Positions 3,342 to 19,323 of a stretch of DNA of 64,000 bases are shown in pieces (within the stretch, counting starts at the first letter, position 1; each line of letters starts with the position of its first letter). Below the pieces are notes generated by a model that searched no databases, was not told where the DNA came from, and worked only from the letters and a program-made list of their open reading frames with translations. The stretch is taken from contig JBAYIZ010000002.1 of assembly GCA_041665405.1 (NCBI GenBank), forward strand, positions 7,300 to 71,299, written 5' to 3'. Source of the stretch: Candidatus Magasanikiibacteriota bacterium (GTDB taxonomy: Bacteria; Patescibacteriota; Patescibacteriia; Magasanikbacterales; GWA2-37-8). The translations under genes were made by a program, and so were the position numbers.

Positions 3342-4967
3342 TTATTTAAGATTTTTATCTTTTATTTCTTTTATAGGTGGTTTTCCCTTCGTTGGATCGT
3401 TTACTTGAATTTTTTTCCAACTATCTGCATCTTCTTTTCTTTCTTGTTTAGTGGCCGAAAGAAGTTGATTGATTTGGACTATTCTTTTTCTCAGTTTAAT
3501 TTTTTTCTTGAGTGGCTCTATCATCTTTTTTATTTTTTCAATCATTGGGTCTATATTATCTTTGATAATTGAGCGTATGGCTTTACTAATTTTTCCAGTG
3601 CCTGCTCCAAATTTAAAGAAAAAAATCGGTATTGCTATGATTGGTGAAAGAATTATAATTATGATACCTACTATTATTTCAACCAACGCGACGCCAATTT
3701 TTATAGCATGGATCACAGATTCTATATAATCTGCGATGGCTATCAGTGCATAAAGAAGAGTCTTGATAGTACGAAGTGTCAGAAGAGCAGCCTTTAACTT
3801 CGCTATTTTTACCACATCTTTTGCATTCGCCTTACCAAAAGTAAGCGAAGTGAGTTGATTGTAAATGGGGCGAGCAAAGGTCCTTAAAATCAGCATTGCT
3901 GGGTTAGTTTTCATTCCCTCAACTGTATTTTCCAGACCAGCTAATTCAGTTCCCAGTTTCTTTCTTTCTTTCTTTAGTTTCTTTTTTCGACTACGATCAC
4001 TTTCCAAATTACTTTTTATTTTATTCATCATTTTTCCAGGTGTCTCCTTTACGCTCTTGACAGTATTATCTACTTTGTTTTTAATTGTTTCTCCTATTCT
4101 ACCGCCTGTTCCTTTATTGGCCCTATCTGAAGCCATATCAGAAGCTGTTTGAGCCTGATTTTGTGGCGCGATCACACCAGGGGTTGTCGATCCAGTTGGA
4201 TGTGGGCCAGTTTCACTGAGAGCACTTTCTGGAACTTTCGGAGGAGTCGTATCTCTCTGTTCAGAAACACTGGATGTTGGTGTTTGATCTGGAGCGGCTG
4301 TGGGTGGTGTTTGTTCAGGAGCAGGTTGGTTTGTGGTCGGTTCTCCAGGTTTGGGTGTTTTTGGTTCTTCTGTGATAGGAGGTTCTTCTGTCGGTTTTTG
4401 TTCCTCTGTTGGTTGCTCAGGTGGTACTTCAGTCGGTGGTTGTTCTGGAGCAGTTTCAGTTGGAGGTGTCGACGGAGTTTGTTCTGGGGTGGGTTGTTTG
4501 GTGTTTGGTTTTCCAGGTTTAGGTGCTTCTGGTTCTCCCACAGTTGGGGTACCTTCTGTTGGTGGTTGTCCTTCGGTTGATTGTTCAGGAGGTGCTTCAT
4601 TCGGTGTCTGTGTCGGAGAGGATTGATTAACAGGTGCTGACTCAACCGGTTTCTCTTCTTCGTCAGGGGCGTCAGATGGTGTGGAATTTTCCTGATTGTC
4701 GTTGACGGCTGATGGTGAAGAAGGTAGACTCCCGAGCTCGTTTGCTTTTTTTGGGAATGGTATAATTTTAGCGTTACCATTAGCCTCAGTGCTGGTTGTT
4801 TTTTTAGTTGGTATTTCTAGTTTTATTACTTCGCCATTTCCAGCTATCTGTGCGCTTCCACCCTCTACTTCTGTTTTTTCAATTTTAAATTTATCACCAT
4901 TAGTTGAGGGTTTGTCACCACCTGATTTTTCCTCTTCTTCAATAGGTTTTCTGGCAAGATTTGCCAT
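3342..4967 (-). CDS. Hypothetical membrane protein with long Pro/Thr/Glu-rich low-complexity repeat region and C-terminal TM helices
   Basis: 541-aa ORF. About 280 aa of PTEEQKPTEEPP / PEQTP-type repeats, encoded by imperfect tandem DNA repeats of about 165-190 bp around 4290-4620. The C-terminal part has hydrophobic helices. No recognisable enzymatic motif. Confidence 0.5.
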   Translation of the reverse strand: MANLARKPIEEEEKSGGDKPSTNGDKFKIEKTEVEGGSAQIAGNGEVIKLEIPTKKTTSTEANGNAKIIPFPKKANELGSLPSSPSAVNDNQENSTPSDAPDEEEKPVESAPVNQSSPTQTPNEAPPEQSTEGQPPTEGTPTVGEPEAPKPGKPNTKQPTPEQTPSTPPTETAPEQPPTEVPPEQPTEEQKPTEEPPITEEPKTPKPGEPTTNQPAPEQTPPTAAPDQTPTSSVSEQRDTTPPKVPESALSETGPHPTGSTTPGVIAPQNQAQTASDMASDRANKGTGGRIGETIKNKVDNTVKSVKETPGKMMNKIKSNLESDRSRKKKLKKERKKLGTELAGLENTVEGMKTNPAMLILRTFARPIYNQLTSLTFGKANAKDVVKIAKLKAALLTLRTIKTLLYALIAIADYIESVIHAIKIGVALVEIIVGIIIIILSPIIAIPIFFFKFGAGTGKISKAIRSIIKDNIDPMIEKIKKMIEPLKKKIKLRKRIVQINQLLSATKQERKEDADSWKKIQVNDPTKGKPPIKEIKDKNLK

Positions 4968-4972
4968 AAATA

Positions 4973-7489
4973 TTATTTAACAAACAGTTGCTTTTCGTTA
5001 ATATCCAAAGTGTACTGTTTTTTATTTTTCTTTTTCAAAATTTCGGTAGCCATTAATTTTTCTATGGCCGTTCGTAGCTCACGGCGAATAGTGCGGGCAT
5101 TGGCGTTGGTAGTCGGAAGGGAAGCAACATAATCTGAAAGTATTTTTTCCTTGGTAATTACCTTGGTGTGATATTGCGCGAGCTGTTCGTTGAATTTCGC
5201 GATTTCTAGTTCGGCAATTTTGGCTAGATCAATGGCAGTCAAAGTATTGAACAAACAAATTTTATCCAAGCGATTGATAAGCTCAGGAGAAAAATATTCT
5301 TTTAGCTTTTCGGTAATTTTTTTATTATAAACTTCACTCTGAGCACCAGTTCCGCCAAAGCCAAAATCGGCACGTTTGGCGACTTCTGCACCCAACGAAG
5401 TGGTTAGTATTATTATAGCATGTTTTAAAGAAATTTTCTTCCCCGTAGAGTCGGTAATTTCCCCATTTTCCAGAATTTGTAATAATAGCTTGGTGACGTC
5501 TCTGTGTGCCTTGTCTATTTCATCAAAAAGCACTACGCAATGTGGGTTGTTTTTTATCTTGTCGGTAAAATTATTACTCTCTTTATAGCCAATATAACCG
5601 GCGGGAGAACCCAAAAGTTTGGACACGCCAAAACTTTCATTGAATTCGCTCATGTCCAATTTTATTAATGAACCTTTGTTTGGGTATAGAGTTTCAGCGA
5701 TAGTTTTGGCCAGTTCGGTTTTGCCCATACCACTTTGGCCGACAAACATAAAAGAGGCTAGTGGTCTATCTGGGTGGTTGAGCCCGAGTCTAGCGCGATT
5801 AATAATTTCGGCGACTTCATGCGTTACATTGTCTTGTCCGATGACTAGCGATTTTAATTTATCTTCCAAATCTAGTAATTCATTTTTTTCTTCCATGATA
5901 AGTTCACTCGGTTTAGATCCAATAATTTTAGCAATTTGTTCTAATACATCATGGTCGGTAATTTCACCGAGAAATTCAGTCTTTTTTTCTTTAGCAATTT
6001 TATTTTCAATATCTATTTCAAGTTTTAATTTTTCTTCTTGTTTTTTGAATTTTACTGCATCGTCAAATTTATCTGAAAGTGCGGCTGCTTCTTTAGCGGA
6101 AATTATTTTTTCTAATTTTTGTTTGAGACGTTCTATTTTTCCCACCCAAGAAGAATTTTTGGAGTTGATTCTTTTCGCGGCGGCAGTTTCGTCTAATATG
6201 TCGATAGCCTTATCTGGTAAAAATTTATTGGTGATGTATCTCTGTGACAGACGAACCGATGCTTCTACCGCAGATTTAGTAATTTTTATACTGTGAAAAA
6301 TTTCGTAGTTGGTTTTAATTCCTTCAAGAATTTTTACTGAATCTTCGGCCGTTGGCTCTTTGACAAAAATAGGTTGGAAGCGACGTTCTAGTGCCGAATC
6401 ACTTTCAATGTGCTTTTTGAATTCATTTAAAGTGGTAGATCCAATACAGCGAATTTGGCCTCGTGCTAGCGCTGGTTTGAGAATATTGGCGGCATCCATA
6501 GTACCTTGGCCACTGCCCGCTCCGACGATGTTGTGCAATTCATCGATAAATAAAATAATATTTGGATTGGCCGCGACGTCATCAATCACCTGGCGCAGAC
6601 GTCCTTCAAATTCACCGCGATAAATAGTACCAGCAATCAGTAACCCCATATCGAGGGCGTAGACTTTTTTGTTTAACAAAATATCTGGTACTTTATTTTG
6701 TAAAATACGTTTGGCTAGACCTTCGACGATAGCAGTTTTACCAACACCAGGTTCACCCAATAGTACCGGATTATTTTTAGTACGGCGACAAAGAATTTGA
6801 ATCAATCTTTCGATTTCGTTTTCTCGTCCGATGATTGGATCAATATTTTTTTGTAATTCCGGATTGGTAAGATTGGTGGCAAAAAAATCCAGAGCCATTT
6901 CTTTTTTACCAGATCGTTTATTATTTTTTGATGAGATAGGGGACTGATGCACATCACTATGTTCTGATCCCAACAAACTATCTTGGATTCTATCTACCGC
7001 TTCCATTACTTCATTTATTTGGGGGAATTGTGAGGCATTGGTAAGTACAATATTTAGTTGTTTGGAAATATCCGTCAACGAAACTTTATTATCTTTTAAA
7101 ATTAAATTAATTTTAGGATCATTTAGTTCGATTGTTCCTTTCAACAAATGCTCTGTGCCAATATAGTTGTGTAAATGTTCTTGAGCGATAGTCATAGCCT
7201 TTTCCACTGCAAATTTTGCGTCAGCGGACAATGCGGTCATTTCTATTTCTGTTGTGTTAGTTGTCTTTTTGATATTAGCAGTCGGCAGTTCCAAAATTAT
7301 TTTTTCCACGTTTTTTAAATCAATTTTTAGACGGTTTAATATTTCAGCCGCCACAGAGCCTTTTTGGTTTTGTAAAATGAAAAACAGATGAACAGGCTCT
7401 ACCTCTTTATTTTCTAGCTTTGTCGCCAATTGAATGCTTTTGCTCAGTACGTCTTTAAGGTGGGTTGAAAATCTATCTAAAATAGACAT
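4973..7489 (-). CDS. clpC: Clp/Hsp100 AAA+ ATPase, ClpC-like (two NBDs, Clp_N domain, putative ClpP-docking FGF loop)
   Basis: Clp N-terminal repeat region. NBD1 Walker A GEPGVGKT and NBD2 Walker A GQSGMGKT. Short middle domain and a ...RADFGFGG... loop resembling the ClpP-interaction tripeptide, favouring ClpC over ClpB. Confidence 0.85.
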
Positions 7490-12263: not shown

Positions 12264-12494
12264 ATGGAAGCAACCGTACAAAAAACAACTTCAAAGGGGC
12301 AGATTACTTTGCCAAAAGTATGGAGGGGGCAATTTAAAACCACTCATTTTGTGTTGGAATCTAATAGTGATATTATGATTATCCGTCCAATTTTTTTGGA
12401 TGATCCGAATAATTATAAAACCATATTTAATGCAGATAGAGATAATAAAGGCAAAGGAATATCTGCAAAGAAGTTGTTGAAGTGTATAAAATAA
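12264..12494 (+). CDS. AbrB/MazE/SpoVT-family DNA-binding protein (swapped-hairpin beta-barrel), possible regulator/antitoxin-like
   Basis: ...TSKGQITLPKVWRGQF... matches the AbrB/MazE N-terminal motif. 76 aa. No adjacent toxin-like ORF was detected. Confidence 0.55.
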   Translation: MEATVQKTTSKGQITLPKVWRGQFKTTHFVLESNSDIMIIRPIFLDDPNNYKTIFNADRDNKGKGISAKKLLKCIK

Positions 12495-12714: not shown

Positions 12715-12821
12715 ACAAATTATCAAAAAGAAGACTGGGAAACGCACACCCAGTCAAGGTAGCAAGCTTTAAGCTCGATAGGTTTCGGGTAAGGAGTAAG
12801 CTAATAAGTTGGAGGTGCGCC

Positions 12822-13646
12822 ATGGCGCGCAAAGACAAGGATCTCAAGGAAGTCCTCGGCAACTGGACGATCGGGTTCGAGGCGCTCAGCGCCCTCGTTT
12901 ACGCCATCCTCAAGAAGGGGGGCGGGATCGAGGATCTGAGTCGGCTCAGCGACAAGGAGGATACGACGGTCGTCGATCAGGTCGCCGATCTGCTCGTTCG
13001 TCCGAAGGTCGTTGCGGAACAGCTCGTGGTTCCGCCGCCCCCGCCCAAGCCCGTCGCCCTTCGGATCGAGGACTTCGTCACGCCGATGAAGGACGATCAG
13101 GTGCCGACCATCTTGCTCGTGTTCGTCAGCATCTGGCGCATGATCGCAAACTGGCTCGGCTACACCGGTCCGATCGCGTGGCGCATTCGTGAGGGCTTCA
13201 CCCTCAAGACGATTGCTCCGCAGGTGGGTCCGTGCCGCAAGGACTTCCAGTATCTCCAGAACTGGAACTTCCCGGACGAGCCGACCAAGGACTGCATCGT
13301 TTTCTGGATTCCGCGCCTCGTGGTCGGAAGTACCAGCAAGTCGGTTTCGGAACAGATGAAGCTCTTGGCAGATCTCCGTAAGCAGTTCAATCTGCCCGAG
13401 CACCACCTGTCCGGGTTCGGTTCGGTCACCGTCCTCGCCGCTCTCATTCTCGCCCATCACAAGCTGACGGGCGAGATGGTCCCGTTGGGCGGCAACTGGA
13501 CCCGCACCGACACCTGCGGTTCGGGCGGCGGTCGCCTCGGCCTGGGCTGGGTCGGGGGCGCTCTCTGCTGCGGCGTCTGGAGCTGGGATGGGGTCAGGTA
13601 CGGTAGTGTCGGCGCCTTCCCGCTGGGGGTGGAACTCGAACACTAG
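12822..13646 (+). CDS. DGR target (variable) protein; C-terminal ~37 codons form the variable repeat (VR); whole gene anomalously GC-rich (~60+% vs ~33% background)
   Basis: GGAGG RBS upstream of ATG. 3' end (13515-13625) matches TR 13981-14091 with all mismatches at TR adenines. The opposite-strand ORF 12801..13643 is a high-GC artefact. Confidence 0.7.
   Translation: MARKDKDLKEVLGNWTIGFEALSALVYAILKKGGGIEDLSRLSDKEDTTVVDQVADLLVRPKVVAEQLVVPPPPPKPVALRIEDFVTPMKDDQVPTILLVFVSIWRMIANWLGYTGPIAWRIREGFTLKTIAPQVGPCRKDFQYLQNWNFPDEPTKDCIVFWIPRLVVGSTSKSVSEQMKLLADLRKQFNLPEHHLSGFGSVTVLAALILAHHKLTGEMVPLGGNWTRTDTCGSGGGRLGLGWVGGALCCGVWSWDGVRYGSVGAFPLGVELEH
13515..13625 (+). repeat. DGR variable repeat (VR) followed by GC-rich IMH-like sequence ggggtggaactcgaacac (13626-13643)
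   Basis: 111 nt aligned codon-by-codon with TR. By hand count 22 differences, all where TR has A (e.g. AAC->GGC/TGC/GTC/AGC/TAC). All non-A positions are identical. Confidence 0.8.
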
Positions 13647-13980
13647 GACACTCGGTCCTTCGTTCGGTCACTCTTGGCAACTTGGACTCTCGTCGGTGGT
13701 ACACTTCATGTGTATCATCGGCGGGGGTCCTTCTTTATTTTATAAAAATTTGATATAATTCTATCGGCTGTATCGATAGTGTTTGCGCCCACGGGTGCAG
13801 GCCGGCAGCACAGGGTATTTATTGATCAGAATAATAAAGCGTACGCGTTTTATTAGCGTATCATTAAATATTTGAACTTCTTTTACACCCCGTGTCAAAC
13901 ATTATTGAGTTTGTGACTCAGAATTATATTCAACCCAAAGAGTATTCAATGGGTGGTGTTTCGGGTGGTGTTTGGCATAT

Positions 13981-14091
13981 AGCGATTCGGACGGCAATCG
14001 CCTCAACCTGAACTGGGTCGAGGGCACTCTCAACTGCGACAACTGGAACTGGGATGAGGACAGGAACAGTAATGTCGGCGCCTTCCCGCTG
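13981..14091 (+). repeat. DGR template repeat (TR), non-coding, AAC-rich (six AAC and two AAT codons in VR frame), followed by IMH*-like atgatgtaaatcgaaaaaac
   Basis: No start codon in frame (preceded by TGA at 13915). Adenine-containing counterpart of VR. Located between the target gene and avd/RT. Confidence 0.8.
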
Positions 14092-14106
14092 ATGATGTAA
14101 ATCGAA

Positions 14107-14134
14107 AAAACATCCTCGCTATTGAGGATGTTTT
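14107..14134. terminator. Perfect 11-bp stem hairpin aaaacatcctc-gctatt-gaggatgtttt immediately 3' of TR and 3' of avd (convergent); terminator and/or DGR RNA 3' structural element
   Basis: Inverted repeat seen directly, flanked by A-run and T-run. Confidence 0.5.
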
Positions 14135-14145
14135 GTTTGTAAATA

Positions 14146-14478
14146 TTATTTTTTCATTTCTTTTATCCACCCACCCATCATTTTACCGGCAGTTATGAGT
14201 TGTCCGGAGAGTTGGGAATATTTATTTGTGTTTAATCCTTTTATTTCCCACAAGATAGTTATGAAATATTTTAATGTGTCCAATTTTTTACTTATTTTTT
14301 CAAGGAATATTATTTTTTCTGTGCGTTGAATATAACTGGCGGTGAGAGTTAATTCAATTATGTCGGTAAAAAGATTGTCAATTTTTGTTCCCAAAGTATG
14401 TTTTGTTAATTTTGGCAAGTGGATTAGAAAACCATGCCACAATTTGTAACTTTCATTAAACTTAGTTAAAATTGGCAA
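14146..14478 (-). CDS. avd: Avd-like DGR accessory variability determinant (four-helix-bundle / '23S rRNA intervening sequence protein' family), TTG start
   Basis: 110-aa small helical basic protein with the general pattern of the four-helix-bundle family to which bAvd belongs. Sits between TR and RT, but on the opposite strand. Confidence 0.6.
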   Translation of the reverse strand: MPILTKFNESYKLWHGFLIHLPKLTKHTLGTKIDNLFTDIIELTLTASYIQRTEKIIFLEKISKKLDTLKYFITILWEIKGLNTNKYSQLSGQLITAGKMMGGWIKEMKK

Positions 14479-14488
14479 ATTTTGCTGA

Positions 14489-14498
14489 GGGGGGGGGG
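14489..14498. repeat. Homopolymeric G10 (C10 on minus strand) tract in the 43-bp divergent avd/RT intergenic region
   Basis: gctgaGGGGGGGGGGttaaaag, highly atypical in ~33% GC DNA. Potential slipped-strand phase-variation site or sequencing artefact. Confidence 0.6.
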
Positions 14499-14521
14499 TT
14501 AAAAGAACCGTTTATATTATT

Positions 14522-15529
14522 ATGAAAATTCAATTGCGTCATAGTTATAAAGAATTAGTTAATTTGGAAAATTTGTTATTTGCTTGGCAAGAGTTTATTG
14601 TTGGTAAAAAGAATAAATTGGACGCGCAAATTTTTAATCGCGATCTCATGGACAATATTGTAGAGCTTCACGAGAGTTTGGTCAATCATACATATTGTCA
14701 TGGTGGATACGAAAGTTTTTATGTCACTGATCCAAAGCGACGACATATTCACAAGGCGAGTGTGAGAGACAGGCTGTTGCATCATGCGATTTATCGGATT
14801 TTGTATCCGTTTTTTGATCGGACTTTTATTTCCGATTCATTTTCGTGTCGCGATGACAAAGGGATGCACAGGGCGTTGGATAGGTTTAGAGCGATGAATT
14901 TTGAGGTTAGTAAAAACCACGCTCGCACCTGCTGGGTTCTCAAATGTGATATTCAAAAATTTTTTGATAGTATTGACCACGGAATTTTATTGAATATTTT
15001 ATCTGAGCATATTTCTGACCGAGACATTTTGAATTTATTAAAAAATGTAATTGATAGCTATAATAGTGAAACAAACGGGGTGGGAGTGGGTTTACCACTT
15101 GGCAACCTCACTTCACAATTATTTTCCAACGTATATATGAATGTGTTTGACCAATTTGTTAAACACAAACTTAAAGTAAAAAATTATATCCGCTATGCGG
15201 ATGATTTTGTATTTCTTTCTCATGATAAACAATATTTAGAAAATTTAATACCTCAAATTCGGGATTTTTTAAGTGAAAAATTAAGATTGACTTTGCATCC
15301 TAGAAAAATATATTTGCAAACCATAGCATCAGGGATTGATTTTCTTGGGTGGAAACATTTTGCCAACCACCGTGTACTGAGAAAGACAACCCAAAAAAGA
15401 ATGATGAGAAATATTGAGATTCATCCGACAAACGAAACTTTACAATCATATTTGGGATTATTGAAACATGGGAATAGTGGAAAGATAAAAAATGAATTAT
15501 TGATTATGTCTTGGGTGTGGAGGATATGA
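14522..15529 (+). CDS. Diversity-generating retroelement reverse transcriptase
   Basis: RT motifs: ...KCDIQKFFDSIDH (motif A), LPLGNLTSQLFSNVYMN (the [ILV]GxxxSQ motif diagnostic of DGR RTs), RYADDFVF (YADD catalytic box), GIDFLGW. 335 aa. TGA stop. Confidence 0.9.
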   Translation: MKIQLRHSYKELVNLENLLFAWQEFIVGKKNKLDAQIFNRDLMDNIVELHESLVNHTYCHGGYESFYVTDPKRRHIHKASVRDRLLHHAIYRILYPFFDRTFISDSFSCRDDKGMHRALDRFRAMNFEVSKNHARTCWVLKCDIQKFFDSIDHGILLNILSEHISDRDILNLLKNVIDSYNSETNGVGVGLPLGNLTSQLFSNVYMNVFDQFVKHKLKVKNYIRYADDFVFLSHDKQYLENLIPQIRDFLSEKLRLTLHPRKIYLQTIASGIDFLGWKHFANHRVLRKTTQKRMMRNIEIHPTNETLQSYLGLLKHGNSGKIKNELLIMSWVWRI

Positions 15530-15593
15530 AAACAAAAACTCCGCCAATGATGGTGGAGTTCTTTTTTTGGTCTATGTAAGGAAAAATGCTTTA

Positions 15594-16160
15594 TTAGAAC
15601 TTCACCTGCACATTTTGTTTTTCATTTTCCGCGGCCAAGAAAAATTCGTATTTGGTGAATTTCAACAACCCTGCAAACATATTAGTAGGGAAGACCTGAA
15701 TTTGAGTATTGAAGTCACGCACATTGCCATTGTAAAATCGGCGACTAGCTTGGATTTTATTTTCTGTGTCCGAAATTTCATCTTGCAATTGCAAGAAGTT
15801 TTGGCTGGCTTTTAGATCCGGATAATTTTCAGTGACCGCAAATAGTGATTTCAAAGTAGAGGACAAAGCGTTTTCTGCCTGTTCGCGTTGAGCCAAGGTC
15901 GCGCCAGTATTATCATGAGTAGCCATAGCGGCAGTGCGAGCTTCGGTGAGTTTTGTCAAAGTTTCGCGTTCGTGGGTCATATAGCCCTTTACTGTCTCAA
16001 CTAGATTTGGAATCAGGTCATAACGGCGTTTGAGTTGGACATCAATGTCACTAAATGCTTCATCTACGCGGTTTTTACTGCGTACCAAACCGTTGAATAT
16101 GACAATGATCCAAACCAATCCTATTGCCAGAACTGCTAAAATAATATAAAATGGATTCAT
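15594..16160 (-). CDS. lemA: LemA family membrane protein
   Basis: N-terminal TM plus ...RRYDLIPNLVETVKGYMTHERETL... and ...NFLQLQDEISDTENKIQASRRFYNGNVRDFN... signature regions of the LemA family. Confidence 0.8.
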   Translation of the reverse strand: MNPFYIILAVLAIGLVWIIVIFNGLVRSKNRVDEAFSDIDVQLKRRYDLIPNLVETVKGYMTHERETLTKLTEARTAAMATHDNTGATLAQREQAENALSSTLKSLFAVTENYPDLKASQNFLQLQDEISDTENKIQASRRFYNGNVRDFNTQIQVFPTNMFAGLLKFTKYEFFLAAENEKQNVQVKF

Positions 16161-16187
16161 AGAATATTAACTTAATTAGCAAAGCCG

Positions 16188-17543
16188 GTGTCGGCTTTAT
16201 TGAGTTATTTTACCTTAATTATAATTATAAATCAAGCAACTATGGCCTCTTTGTTGTATTTTATCATTGTTTTAGCGATACTAGTTATTTCACATGAATT
16301 TGGTCATTTTATCATAGCCAAAAAAACTGGCATGAAAGTGCATGAGTTTGGTTTTGGTTTTCCTCCGCGTCTTTTTGGTATTCAATTTTTAAAAGAAAAA
16401 AAATTAAAGAAAATTGCTGAAGTGGAAACAATAGAAGTAAAAGATGAAATCGTGGCTGGTATAGATGGTGGAGAAATTTTACAAGAAACAATTACTGACA
16501 CAACCAAAGAAATAGATATAATAGAAAATAAAACAAAATGGCGGTTTGTTTTGGGCAATCGCGATCTTAATGAAAGTGATGAACAATATGGTACGGTGTA
16601 TTCTTTGAACTGGTTACCACTTGGTGGATTTGTAAAAATAAAAGGAGAGAACGGCGATGGTGCGGATGATCCACAAAGTTTTGCGGCCAAAAAACCATGG
16701 CAAAAGGCAGTGGTATTGGTAGCGGGTGTGGTGATGAATATTATTTTGGCTGGAGTTTTGTTGATCGCTGGATATATGATTGGCCTGCCACAAACTTTGG
16801 ATAATATGGATGATGTGTCTGCGATAAAAGATCGTCGTATTGAAATTTTGCAAACAATTCCTGGCAAACCAGCCGAAGCGGCCGGGATAAAAGCAGGGGA
16901 TGTAGTTGTGCAGGTTGGTGAGATTGTGAATCCTCGTTTGAAAGAATTACAAAATTATGTAAATGAACACAAGACCGAAGAATTGTTATTGCGTGTAAAA
17001 CGTGGCGAAGAAATTATTGATAAAAAAATTACTCCAGCAGTTTACGCCGATACTGGCAAAGGTGGTTTGGGAATTGCGATCGCTGAACTCGGTACGGTGA
17101 AGTATTCATTTTTCCCAGCTATTTGGGAAGGTATCAAAACTACCGGTTGGTATCTGAAAGAAATTTTAGTGGCTTTTTATTTATTGTTGAAAGGTTTGAT
17201 TACCGGTGGTGGTGCAGCTGAGGCGGTGTCTGGTCCAGTGGGAGTAGCAGTGATGACTGGCCAAGTGGCACGCTTGGGCTTGATTTATCTCATCCAATTT
17301 ACTGCGATGCTATCTTTGAATTTAGCGATATTTAATATTTTACCTATTCCAGCTTTGGATGGTGGTCGTTTATTATTTTTAGCAATTGCCAAGATTCGTC
17401 GCAAACCAGTATCTGAAAAAATTGAAGGTATTTTTCATACGGTTGGATTTATGTTGTTGATGTTGCTAGTGGTAGTGGTGACGGTGCGAGATTTATCTAC
17501 TTTCAAAGAATTGATTATGAATTTTTTTAGTAGATTATTTTAA
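16188..17543 (+). CDS. rseP: RIP site-2 metalloprotease RseP (peptidase M50) with PDZ domain; true start possibly the second Met (16242)
   Basis: HEFGHF (HExxH) in the first TM, PDZ region (GIKAGDVVVQVGE), C-terminal NLLPIPALDGG motif. Confidence 0.85.
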   Translation: MSALLSYFTLIIIINQATMASLLYFIIVLAILVISHEFGHFIIAKKTGMKVHEFGFGFPPRLFGIQFLKEKKLKKIAEVETIEVKDEIVAGIDGGEILQETITDTTKEIDIIENKTKWRFVLGNRDLNESDEQYGTVYSLNWLPLGGFVKIKGENGDGADDPQSFAAKKPWQKAVVLVAGVVMNIILAGVLLIAGYMIGLPQTLDNMDDVSAIKDRRIEILQTIPGKPAEAAGIKAGDVVVQVGEIVNPRLKELQNYVNEHKTEELLLRVKRGEEIIDKKITPAVYADTGKGGLGIAIAELGTVKYSFFPAIWEGIKTTGWYLKEILVAFYLLLKGLITGGGAAEAVSGPVGVAVMTGQVARLGLIYLIQFTAMLSLNLAIFNILPIPALDGGRLLFLAIAKIRRKPVSEKIEGIFHTVGFMLLMLLVVVVTVRDLSTFKELIMNFFSRLF

Positions 17544-17545
17544 AT

Positions 17546-18262
17546 ATGAAAATTAACGGGGAAAGATTTTTAAATGACGAAGCCCTTGAGAAAATGAGTG
17601 GGCAATGGAAAAAAGATGCGGATAAATATGAAAAGAGAACTCCAGATTTTCCTTATTATTATCCTGTAAATAGAATTGAAGGTAAAAAACGCGACGGCGG
17701 ACAAATTGATTTGTTGCATAATGAAAGGTTTATTGAGGAAACAATACCAGTATTAATAAAGAATAATCCTGAAAGGAAAATAAAAATATTAGATGTAGGT
17801 GGTGGTACTGGGTTATTTGCGAAACAAATCCGTGAGATCTTTGGTTCAAAAGTAGAGGTGCTTACCACTGGTTTAGTAAAGCAGTCAGCTAGAGTGGAAC
17901 GAGCTTCAATTGGTGAATCAACTAAACTTCATCAAAATGATTTAAAGTGGCGTTCGGTATTAGAACTTAGCGATTTTCCGGAGTTTGATTTGATTATTGA
18001 TACAATGGGAGAAGGATTATGGGGTGTGGGACTTGAAGAGTTTGAAGAATCAAAAGGTAAGATTGAAAATTATTTAAACGCTGTCGCAAAAAAGTTATTA
18101 CCTGGTGGACATGCCAGTATTACACAATTACATGTGGATGAAACTTCCCCTGATGAATTTAGAAAATTGTTTGATCATATAGAACAGGCTTGTGGTGTGA
18201 AGATAGATCGTAATGAAAAAGGTGGTTCAATAAAAATATATAAGAGTGATAAAAAAATATAA
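17546..18262 (+). CDS. Class I SAM-dependent methyltransferase (hypothetical substrate)
   Basis: Motif I ILDVGGGTGLFA and an acidic residue after beta2. No further specificity is discernible. Confidence 0.55.
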   Translation: MKINGERFLNDEALEKMSGQWKKDADKYEKRTPDFPYYYPVNRIEGKKRDGGQIDLLHNERFIEETIPVLIKNNPERKIKILDVGGGTGLFAKQIREIFGSKVEVLTTGLVKQSARVERASIGESTKLHQNDLKWRSVLELSDFPEFDLIIDTMGEGLWGVGLEEFEESKGKIENYLNAVAKKLLPGGHASITQLHVDETSPDEFRKLFDHIEQACGVKIDRNEKGGSIKIYKSDKKI

Positions 18263-18270
18263 GTTAAATA

Positions 18271-19323
18271 TTGTTTATGCAATCTAAACTTGAACAATTA
18301 AAATCCGAAGCGCTGTTGGCTTTGAAGTCAGTCAAAGACAAAATGCAGTTGGAAGAATTGGAAAATAAATTGTTGGGACGCAAAAATGGCGAGCTCACCA
18401 ATATTATGAAGGGGCTCAAAGATTTGGCCGATGATGCTCGCAAAGTAGCTGGCCAAATTGCCAATGAGGTAAAGATAGAAATCGAGAGTGCTTTGCAATC
18501 CAAAAAACAAGAATTGTCTCAAGCGGATTGGTCTTCTGTTTTGGAAAAAGAACGGATAGATATTTCTCAACCAGCTCTGCCAAAAACAGAGCGTGGACAT
18601 TTTCATCCCAATACTATTATCCAAACTGATTTGGAAGATTTGTTTACCTCTATGGGTTTTATGGTTTTGGATGGACCGGAATTAGAAAGTGATTATTACA
18701 ATTTTACTGCCGTAAATATACCAACCACTCATCCGGCGCGCGATATGCAGGATACTTTTTATATCAAAAACCATGATGTGGGGACAGATAGTCCATGGGT
18801 GATGCGTACGCAGACATCTTCGGTGCAGGTGCGAGCGATGCAAAAATATGGCGCCCCACTACGCGCGATTGTGCCAGGCAAATGTTATCGCAACGAAGGT
18901 ACAGATGTCCGCCACGAACATACTTTTTACCAGTTGGAAGGTTTTGTTATTGATGAAAATATTACTTTTGCCCACATGAAAGGGGTAATGGAATCGGTGG
19001 TGGAGCATCTTTTTGGAGAAGAAACAAAATTAAAACTGAGACCAAAATTTTATCCTTTTGTGGAGCCGGGAGTAAATGGTGAAGTGACTTGTTTCCTATG
19101 CAAAGGAAAAGGATGTCGTGTCTGTAAAAATACTGGATGGTTAGAAATTATTGGCGCGGGTATGATTCATCCAAATGTTTTGCGTGAAGGCAAAATTGAT
19201 CCAAATAAATATCAGGGGTTTGCTTTTGGATTTGGTTTGACTCGTCTAGTTATGTTGAAATATGGTATCGAAGATATTCGTCATCTGGAAAGCGGAGATT
19301 TAAAATTTTTAAAACAGTTTTAA
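18271..19323 (+). CDS. pheS: Phenylalanine--tRNA ligase alpha subunit
   Basis: Class II aaRS motifs, ...FNFTAVNIPTTHPARDMQDTFYI..., typical 350-aa size, directly upstream of pheT. Confidence 0.92.
   Translation: MFMQSKLEQLKSEALLALKSVKDKMQLEELENKLLGRKNGELTNIMKGLKDLADDARKVAGQIANEVKIEIESALQSKKQELSQADWSSVLEKERIDISQPALPKTERGHFHPNTIIQTDLEDLFTSMGFMVLDGPELESDYYNFTAVNIPTTHPARDMQDTFYIKNHDVGTDSPWVMRTQTSSVQVRAMQKYGAPLRAIVPGKCYRNEGTDVRHEHTFYQLEGFVIDENITFAHMKGVMESVVEHLFGEETKLKLRPKFYPFVEPGVNGEVTCFLCKGKGCRVCKNTGWLEIIGAGMIHPNVLREGKIDPNKYQGFAFGFGLTRLVMLKYGIEDIRHLESGDLKFLKQF

Follow-up and report, generated by a model that had tools for sequence, protein, structure and literature searches.

The window analysed here, a 64-kb stretch of DNA to which all coordinates refer, comes from a member of the Patescibacteria, or candidate phyla radiation (CPR), and contains at 12822-15529 a diversity-generating retroelement (DGR). 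The four components of such an element, namely a target gene that ends in a variable repeat (VR), a template repeat (TR), the accessory gene avd and a reverse transcriptase (RT) gene, all lie inside 2.7 kb. The boundaries of the element are clean, and all open reading frames (ORFs) are intact. The source organism is indicated by the target protein, which has a 100% identical counterpart, annotated as hypothetical, in a Candidatus Magasanikbacteria metagenome-assembled genome (MAG). A first-pass annotation, made from the sequence alone, had proposed a complete DGR at this position, and all four parts were found where it had placed them. The element is almost certainly a chromosomal DGR of the CPR type, with the order target-VR / TR / (avd, reverse strand) / RT. 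Its main components are as follows.

12822-13646, plus strand: target gene, 274 aa, made up of a helical N-terminal domain, a PPPPP linker and, at the C terminus, a C-type-lectin fold (structure model)
13516-13626, plus strand: VR, the last 37 codons of the target before its C-terminal tail, with 19 variable codons
13982-14092, plus strand: TR, 111 nt, non-coding, with 27 adenines
14146-14478, minus strand: avd (accessory variability determinant), 110 aa, TTG start
14522-15529, plus strand: DGR RT, 335 aa, with LGNLTSQ encoded at 15098-15118 and YADD at 15194-15205

Template and variable repeats

A direct-repeat search pairs 13516-13640 with 13982-14106, and VR and TR align without gaps over 111 nt at an offset of 466, which bears out the earlier description of a 111-bp TR that nearly copies the last ~37 codons of the upstream gene. 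There are 22 mismatches in this alignment, every one of them at a TR adenine (22/22; hypergeometric P 8.5e-19). Mismatches at other bases number zero in the 111 nt, and the first change that does not involve an adenine is a T->G at 13627. The first-pass annotation had regarded differences beyond adenines as the mark of an ordinary gene duplication; within the repeats there are none. The diversified sites of the VR extend from 13519 to 13606, with one more at 13626.

In the reading frame of the target ORF, the TR adenines fall on codon positions 1, 2 and 3 in the numbers 12, 15 and 0. Nine TR codons are AAY, none of the variable codons is able to turn into a stop, and the theoretical repertoire of the VR is ~10^16 proteins. 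The TR has no coding role, having an in-frame TAA at 14098-14100 where the VR reads GAA. No other VR that matches the TR is present in the 64-kb window.

The target protein

Comparison of the target sequence with Pfam, NCBIfam, PDB, PADLOC and PHROGs gives no match. The structure model has a C-type-lectin fold, as would be expected of a DGR variable protein, and its top structural match is TvpA of the Treponema denticola DGR, with only 13% sequence identity. TvpA is a lipoprotein. In the target studied here no signal peptide or membrane anchor is obvious by eye, no predictor having been applied. The first-pass annotation had suggested a hypervariable ligand-binding protein acting at the surface or in host interaction; the predicted fold supports the ligand-binding part of this suggestion, and surface display stays conjectural.

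Reverse transcriptase and Avd

The LGxxxSQ motif and YADD box seen in the first reading of the RT are present as LGNLTSQ (residues 193-199) and YADD (residues 225-228). The top PDB match of the RT is the Bordetella enzyme bRT (8ub7), with 152 bits, an E value of 1.5e-43 and residues 9-312 aligned, as compared with at most 75 bits (4e-20) for group II RT structures and at most 31 bits for retron RTs. A grouping with group II introns or retrons, which the first-pass annotation had named as the finding that would undo its proposal, is thus not seen. Among family models, the top NCBIfam match by name is the group II maturase TIGR04416, at 150 bits against a 300-bit cutoff, and the retron and Drt models all score far below their cutoffs (84 versus 200 bits). 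Further matches are to a PHROG phage RT family (4.7e-106) and to RVT_1 (1.9e-24), and the best PADLOC matches are generic RT models. Neither the family score nor an intron RNA points to a group II intron, nor is the RT recognised as that of a retron or defence-associated (DRT) system, its neighbours being Avd and the VR-bearing target.

The gene between TR and RT, earlier described as Avd-like, keeps this identity and position, with the correction that it lies on the minus strand and diverges from the RT gene. It is recognised by three libraries: Pfam bAvd (3.4e-11; 44 bits against a gathering score of 40), NCBIfam DivGenRetAVD (2.7e-18, covering model positions 1-104 of 104, with a score below the curated cutoff) and the PHROG 'Avd protein of DGR' (6e-17).

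Recent activity

Two further public contigs, one from an ENA assembly (L122) and one from a different JGI sample (L123), contain an RT sequence identical to that of the window. L122 matches the window without a difference over 7 kb. L123 spans window positions 13589-18529 and differs from it at 6 positions in ~4.9 kb: a single nucleotide polymorphism (SNP) lies outside the VR, at 18286, and five differences are in the VR (13589, 13594, 13599, 13600 and 13605). Four of these five (13594, 13599, 13600 and 13605) are at TR-adenine sites, and codons 258, 260 and 262 are altered. The VR differs from its template at adenines only, and it also varies between samples. L123 ends inside the VR, as is expected if its assembly broke at a hypervariable stretch. 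Given 17 nt of VR overlap, the comparison is suggestive of an element that has been diversifying recently.

Relationship to known DGRs

The arrangement TR-(avd)-RT is architecture B3, which accounts for 90% of CPR DGRs and is found almost nowhere else (Wu et al. 2018, PMC5758913). DGR clade 2 is restricted to Patescibacteria (Roux et al. 2021, PMC8144416). Here, avd is on the reverse strand between TR and RT, and the host belongs to Ca. Magasanikbacteria. Because its architecture is B3, the element belongs to the known class of CPR DGRs (B3/clade 2), with which it shares gene order, orientation, host phylum, a chromosomal non-phage context, Avd, and a small uncharacterised target with a C-terminal VR. 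There is no essential difference from this class; the target family found here is unnamed.

The target family has 67 members in a collection of 5.8 billion proteins. None of them has a Pfam domain, and those whose source is named are from Patescibacteria. Among GTDB species representatives, a search from a 10-sequence target alignment found 37 loci that encode a target relative. The addition of four loci from an exact-protein look-up gives a set of 41, and the window was counted too for the fraction with a cassette. About one third of the target-family loci have avd (minus strand) and RT (plus strand) directly downstream in the same order, and the rest (~25/41) have no cassette within 5 kb. 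An RT-based metagenome scan found more than 567 relatives, and RT identity among the 11 cassettes compared is 53-75%. All 50 loci with a detectable VR (50/50) have the TR just 5' of a reverse-strand avd and an adenine-biased VR, which is mostly 230-470 nt upstream of the TR. The sets used for the comparisons below comprise ~50-70 related cassettes and vary by feature.

Several relatives show variations on this arrangement. In one MAG (JBAZUI01), the TR at 6100-6226 of locus L009 also matches the VR of a remote paralog at 1000-1126 of locus L006, under adenine-tolerant scoring, so that 'orphan' copies without a cassette can be targets in trans. The target is duplicated in tandem at loci L019 and L022, and at L011 neither avd nor RT accompanies a decayed TR-like copy. 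Several contigs classed as viral in IMG/VR (among L124-L135) carry CPR-type DGRs with RTs 44-60% identical.

The element can also be compared with the two systems to which its proteins show structural matches. With the Bordetella BPP-1 element (mtd-avd-TR-Sp-brt) it shares RT homology (152 bits to 8ub7), Avd, adenine-specific transfer from TR to VR, a C-terminal VR of C-type-lectin fold and a GC-rich block, like the initiation of mutagenic homing (IMH) sequence, followed by a hairpin. A further shared feature is pairing between segments upstream and downstream of the TR, which is comparable to the 'cPRT Stop' duplex (bioRxiv 10.1101/2023.10.23.563531). In Bordetella, the TR is followed on its 3' side by an essential 140-nt Spacer (Sp), which contains the priming adenosine and forms pairs with a short segment upstream (bioRxiv 10.1101/2023.10.23.563531). 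By contrast, avd is here inverted and lies between TR and RT, a large structured RNA lies 5' of the TR, the element is chromosomal, and its target is not a tail fibre. The Treponema DGR is of architecture C and has an HRDC accessory gene (Wu et al., PMC5758913), which is absent here.

A structured leader RNA upstream of the TR

The region between the target gene and avd contains the following features, which together would define a TR-containing RNA.

13751-13759, plus strand: predicted extended -10 promoter TGATATAAT for the TR-containing RNA
13766-13981, plus strand: structured leader RNA, ~215 nt, directly 5' of the TR, aligning across 50 cassettes
13781-13802, 13819-13867 and 13832-13855, plus strand: leader helices P1, P2 and P3 (RNAalifold)
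13892-13978, 13907-13919 and 13933-13954, plus strand: leader helices P4, P5 and P6 (RNAalifold)
13885-13894, plus strand: leader junction motif ACACCCCGTG
14096-14101, plus strand: tail UGUAAA, which can pair with leader 13882-13887 (UUUACA)
14107-14134, both strands: bidirectional intrinsic terminator with an A-run, a CATCCTC/GAGGATG stem and a T-run (the terminator scan lists the minus strand)

The promoter consensus TGnTAnAAT is kept at the same alignment position in the 50 cassettes. Covariation demonstrates the structure of the leader. The RNAalifold structure has 48 pairs in eight helices, and 43 of the pairs have compensatory changes. Paired cells amount to 91%, versus 65% after shuffling of columns and ~40% after sliding of partners, and the covariation score of 0.749 (versus 0.265) was reached by 0 of 500 shuffles.

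A covariance model (CM) built from the 3' domain of the leader finds the window with 85.9 bits and has 10 matches on viral contigs. All ten are in CPR-type DGR loci, with RTs ~46-60% identical to that of the window, and the matches compared with a detected TR (e.g., in L124) end directly 5' of it. Most of the CPR-type DGRs on L124-L135 carry the leader RNA, and no match is found in L132 or L134. The CM finds nothing in 60+ phage-type DGRs, which have RTs 34-39% identical and mostly the order target-avd-TR-RT; BPP-1 itself was outside this search. The leader was also considered as a homolog of the phage Spacer. Since the CM has no match in these phage-type DGRs, such homology is not demonstrated; the leader may correspond in function to the 3' Spacer of Bordetella, with its position permuted.

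All that follows the TR is a short tail (~40 nt) and the bidirectional terminator, which has a T-run on either strand and would end both the TR RNA (plus strand) and avd (minus strand). Equivalent hairpins are found in all related cassettes. The leader segment able to pair with the tail sits just 5' of the ACACCCCGTG/ATACTTGGTG junction; with the duplex formed, the P4-P6 domain and the TR would both be enclosed. In both sub-clades, a leader pairs more stably with its cognate tail than with non-cognate tails (-8.7 versus -5.2 and -6.7 versus -4.6 kcal/mol; permutation p<0.0002). In this window the duplex is weak, at -4.7 kcal/mol.

Putative homing signals and the avd-RT spacer

Another group of features surrounds the 3' end of the VR, and two more lie at the ends of the RT gene.

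13608-13645, plus strand: IMH-like VR end, from alignments, with a function proposed from the Bordetella IMH (PMC5758913)
13650-13685, plus strand: CTYGG array directly after the target stop codon, with CTCGG at 13650 and CTTGG at 13673 and 13681
13684-13740, plus strand: target-gene terminator, an imperfect GC-rich hairpin (20 pairs, 13684-13730) and T-run, from the terminator scan
14489-14498, plus strand: G10 homopolymer, within the 43-nt spacer that separates avd from the divergently oriented RT gene
15537-15560, plus strand: RT-gene terminator, from the terminator scan

An 18-nt GC-rich block, GTCGGCGCCTTCCCGCTG, closes both copies of the repeat and is identical at 13608-13625 and, in the TR, at 14074-14091. 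Beyond it the two copies diverge, reading GGGGTGGAACTCGAAC after the VR and ATGATGTAAATCGAAA, which is IMH*-like, after the TR. The single T->G difference recurs at the same place in related cassettes. An IMH at the VR end and a non-identical IMH* at the TR end have been described for DGRs (PMC5758913). By analogy, we infer that the related but different sequences after the GC-rich block form an IMH/IMH* pair, which would have a role in homing. The hairpin at 13684-13740 occupies the place of the Bordetella inverted repeat downstream of IMH, and equivalent hairpins are found in related loci. It differs from the terminator hairpin after the TR, so that the locus appears, by its sequence, to have the IMH, IMH* and hairpin set of a DGR.

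The CTYGG motif is ~9-fold enriched in the 130 nt around the VR 3' end (2.34 versus 0.25 per 130 nt in 50 cassettes). The enrichment is strand-specific, the reverse complement being found at 0.06 per 130 nt, and the preferred spacing of the motifs is 8 or 16 nt. They are absent 3' of the TR. We suggest the CTYGG repeats as a candidate marker of the acceptor site.

A G or C run of at least 6 nt (G8-G14 in the examples displayed) is present in the avd-RT spacer of 62 of 73 related cassettes, with the conserved flanks GTTG(n)ATTAAAGG. The tract could be a slippage-prone switch of expression. Its length, G10, is equal in the two samples compared. In the literature searched, which did not include Paul et al. 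2017, no description was found of the leader RNA, the CTYGG repeats, the poly-G tract or the GC excess of the target.

A GC-rich target gene

GC content is 30-44% throughout the window, with the exception of a single island at 12.8-13.7 kb. The target gene has 63% GC, compared with 37% for the genome, a GC content at third codon positions (GC3) of 0.83 and an A content (A3) of 0.03. For the remaining 41 long ORFs of the window, GC3 is 0.31 +/- 0.05 and reaches at most 0.41. The excess is a plateau whose bounds match those of the ORF; it is higher still in the VR and shows no gradient. Spreading of adenine mutagenesis upstream from the VR was considered as the cause and rejected, given the lack of a gradient and a depletion of T at least as strong as that of A in the gene body. 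One by-product of the high GC is an antisense ORF of 280 aa (12801-13643, minus strand), which was called as a gene instead of the target in the ENA assembly of the same locus (L122). Just 13 of 40 family members have it open at full length, in no case does its length exceed that seen in synonymous shuffles, and GC3 is 0.83 in the sense and 0.62 in the antisense direction; we rejected it as a gene.

The excess is not limited to this locus. Targets are 5-27 points above their flanks in 41 of 41 family loci, whether or not a cassette is adjacent and with the most GC-rich hosts included. In the RT-clade cassettes the target is more GC-rich than the RT in all 50 cases, with a median difference of 17 points, and most of these targets are not recognised by tblastn as members of the present target family. 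Phage-type DGRs (n=47) have targets only 3 points above their surroundings, versus 12 points in the CPR clade. CPR-type and phage-type DGRs alike have an RT that is ~4.5 points less GC-rich than its surroundings, and avd, RT and TR of the same cassette have host-like GC. Descriptions of GC-rich DGR targets were not found in the literature searched.

The target might have been acquired recently by horizontal transfer from a GC-rich donor, rather than kept GC-rich in place. Its codon usage (C3 > G3 >> T3 >> A3, with GC3 as above) is indeed like that of a normal gene from a genome of ~63% GC, the island coincides with the ORF without a gradient from the VR, and atypical GC has been taken as a sign of DGR transfer (Wu et al., PMC5758913). 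Against this stand the GC excess over the RT in 50 of 50 cassettes, among which the RTs compared are only 53-75% identical, the excess over the flanks in all 41 family loci, even in the most GC-rich hosts, and the host-like GC of avd, RT and TR of the same cassette. Every target homolog found sits on a Patescibacteria-type contig, and the divergences of target and RT show a modest positive correlation (r 0.44, p 0.017). The universality of the excess across old divergences, together with this correlation, argues against recent transfer as a general cause, and we consider it unlikely as the origin of the island. A persistent gene-specific force fits the GC excess better. Candidate causes are biased gene conversion among targets that are often multi-copy, selection on the mRNA or on the pairing strength of the DNA, and repeated replacement from a GC-rich pool. 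As it stands, the GC excess is an unexplained compositional signal that makes gene callers choose the wrong strand (as in L122), and it might offer an inexpensive way to flag DGR targets in CPR genomes.

A proposed mechanism

The element would work as follows. An RNA starting from the extended -10 promoter would comprise the ~215-nt leader, the 111-nt TR and the short tail, and would end at the hairpin at 14107-14134, its ends being those predicted here. A complex of RT and Avd would reverse-transcribe the TR with misincorporation opposite adenines, as might be expected from homology to Bordetella bRT-Avd. The cDNA would then replace the VR at the 3' end of the target gene, guided by the GC-rich IMH-like block and perhaps by the CTYGG repeats and downstream hairpin as putative homing signals. 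In this way, a small protein of C-type-lectin fold could come to have up to ~10^16 versions of its ligand-binding face.

We tentatively go further and propose, while rating the whole as possible rather than probable, that CPR-type DGRs run a permuted and differently regulated form of the Bordetella mechanism. The ~215-nt leader 5' of the TR, closed by the leader-tail duplex, would position RT-Avd and prime cDNA synthesis in place of a 3' Spacer. CTYGG motifs spaced by 8 nt would mark the acceptor, and the length-variable poly-G tract would set expression of avd and RT. A gene-specific force (for example, biased gene conversion among target paralogs, or selection on mRNA or DNA) would hold target GC 12-27 points above the genome. 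If the 5' leader is indeed needed for cDNA synthesis, the RNA scaffold of a DGR can lie on the other side of its template, which would bear on the evolution of priming and on the engineering of DGR-based mutagenesis tools.

Several points weigh against the main account, that of a chromosomal CPR-type DGR. The structured RNA is 5' of the TR here and 3' of it in the one characterised DGR, that of Bordetella, and the priming site on the TR RNA could not be pinpointed; cDNA synthesis and homing by the element are steps that we infer. The Avd score of 66 bits is under the NCBIfam curated cutoff of 80, and the target lacks a recognisable export signal. The between-sample overlap of the VR is only 17 nt, and the difference at 13589, the first base of contig L123, does not involve a TR adenine; it may be a contig-end error.

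The element could be a fossil whose parts are still recognisable and whose target is no longer diversified, so that the TR/VR differences would be historical. Remnants do exist in the family, such as the decayed TR-like copy of L011, which has 7 non-A mismatches and neither avd nor RT, and for ~25 of the 41 target homologs no cassette lies within 5 kb. In the window, however, all ORFs are intact, the catalytic YADD is present and the 111 nt of TR and VR have no non-A mismatch; moreover, four TR-A sites differ across the 17 nt of VR available from two samples whose DNA is otherwise nearly identical (a single SNP in ~4.9 kb beyond the VR). A fossil is thus very improbable. The reading of the repeats as an ordinary partial gene duplication beside an unrelated RT (of a group II intron, retron or defence system), for which one might cite the group II intron RT/maturase named by the top NCBIfam match and the weak Drt and retron matches, is refuted by the adenine test and the RT comparison, since the mismatches are adenine-only, those matches are far under curated cutoffs (150 versus 300 and 84 versus 200 bits), bRT leads the solved relatives by 77 bits, Avd is adjacent and no intron or retron RNA family was found with Rfam.

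The DGR reading thus stands, and this DGR is ordinary for its phylum, one more well-resolved example of a known, very large class. What makes it interesting are the conserved RNA and DNA elements and the compositional anomaly, features that the whole clade shares and that are not peculiar to the window. It is a good working example, being compact (2.7 kb), with evidence of recent activity and at least 50 comparable cassettes that expose the conserved non-coding parts.

Genomic setting and other observations

The genes flanking the element are housekeeping genes. They encode a Clp-type AAA+ ATPase, phosphoglucomutase and an ADP-forming acetyl-CoA synthetase, and further such neighbours are an M48 peptidase (HtpX-type), LemA, an M50 peptidase (RseP-type) and PheS. 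No phage genes were seen. The 64-kb window contains 0 tRNA genes, and Rfam families, including intron and retron RNAs, have 0 matches in the DGR region or in the window as a whole.

Just 5' of the target, a 76-aa ORF (12264-12494) has weak matches to AbrB/MazE-antitoxin-like proteins (Pfam 7e-4, under the cutoff). Farther away, at 3342-4967 on the minus strand, a 541-aa protein is encoded that is of low complexity, rich in Pro, Thr and Glu, and hydrophobic in a C-terminal segment. It has no match in Pfam and accounts for the strong AT skew (-0.44) at 4-5 kb.

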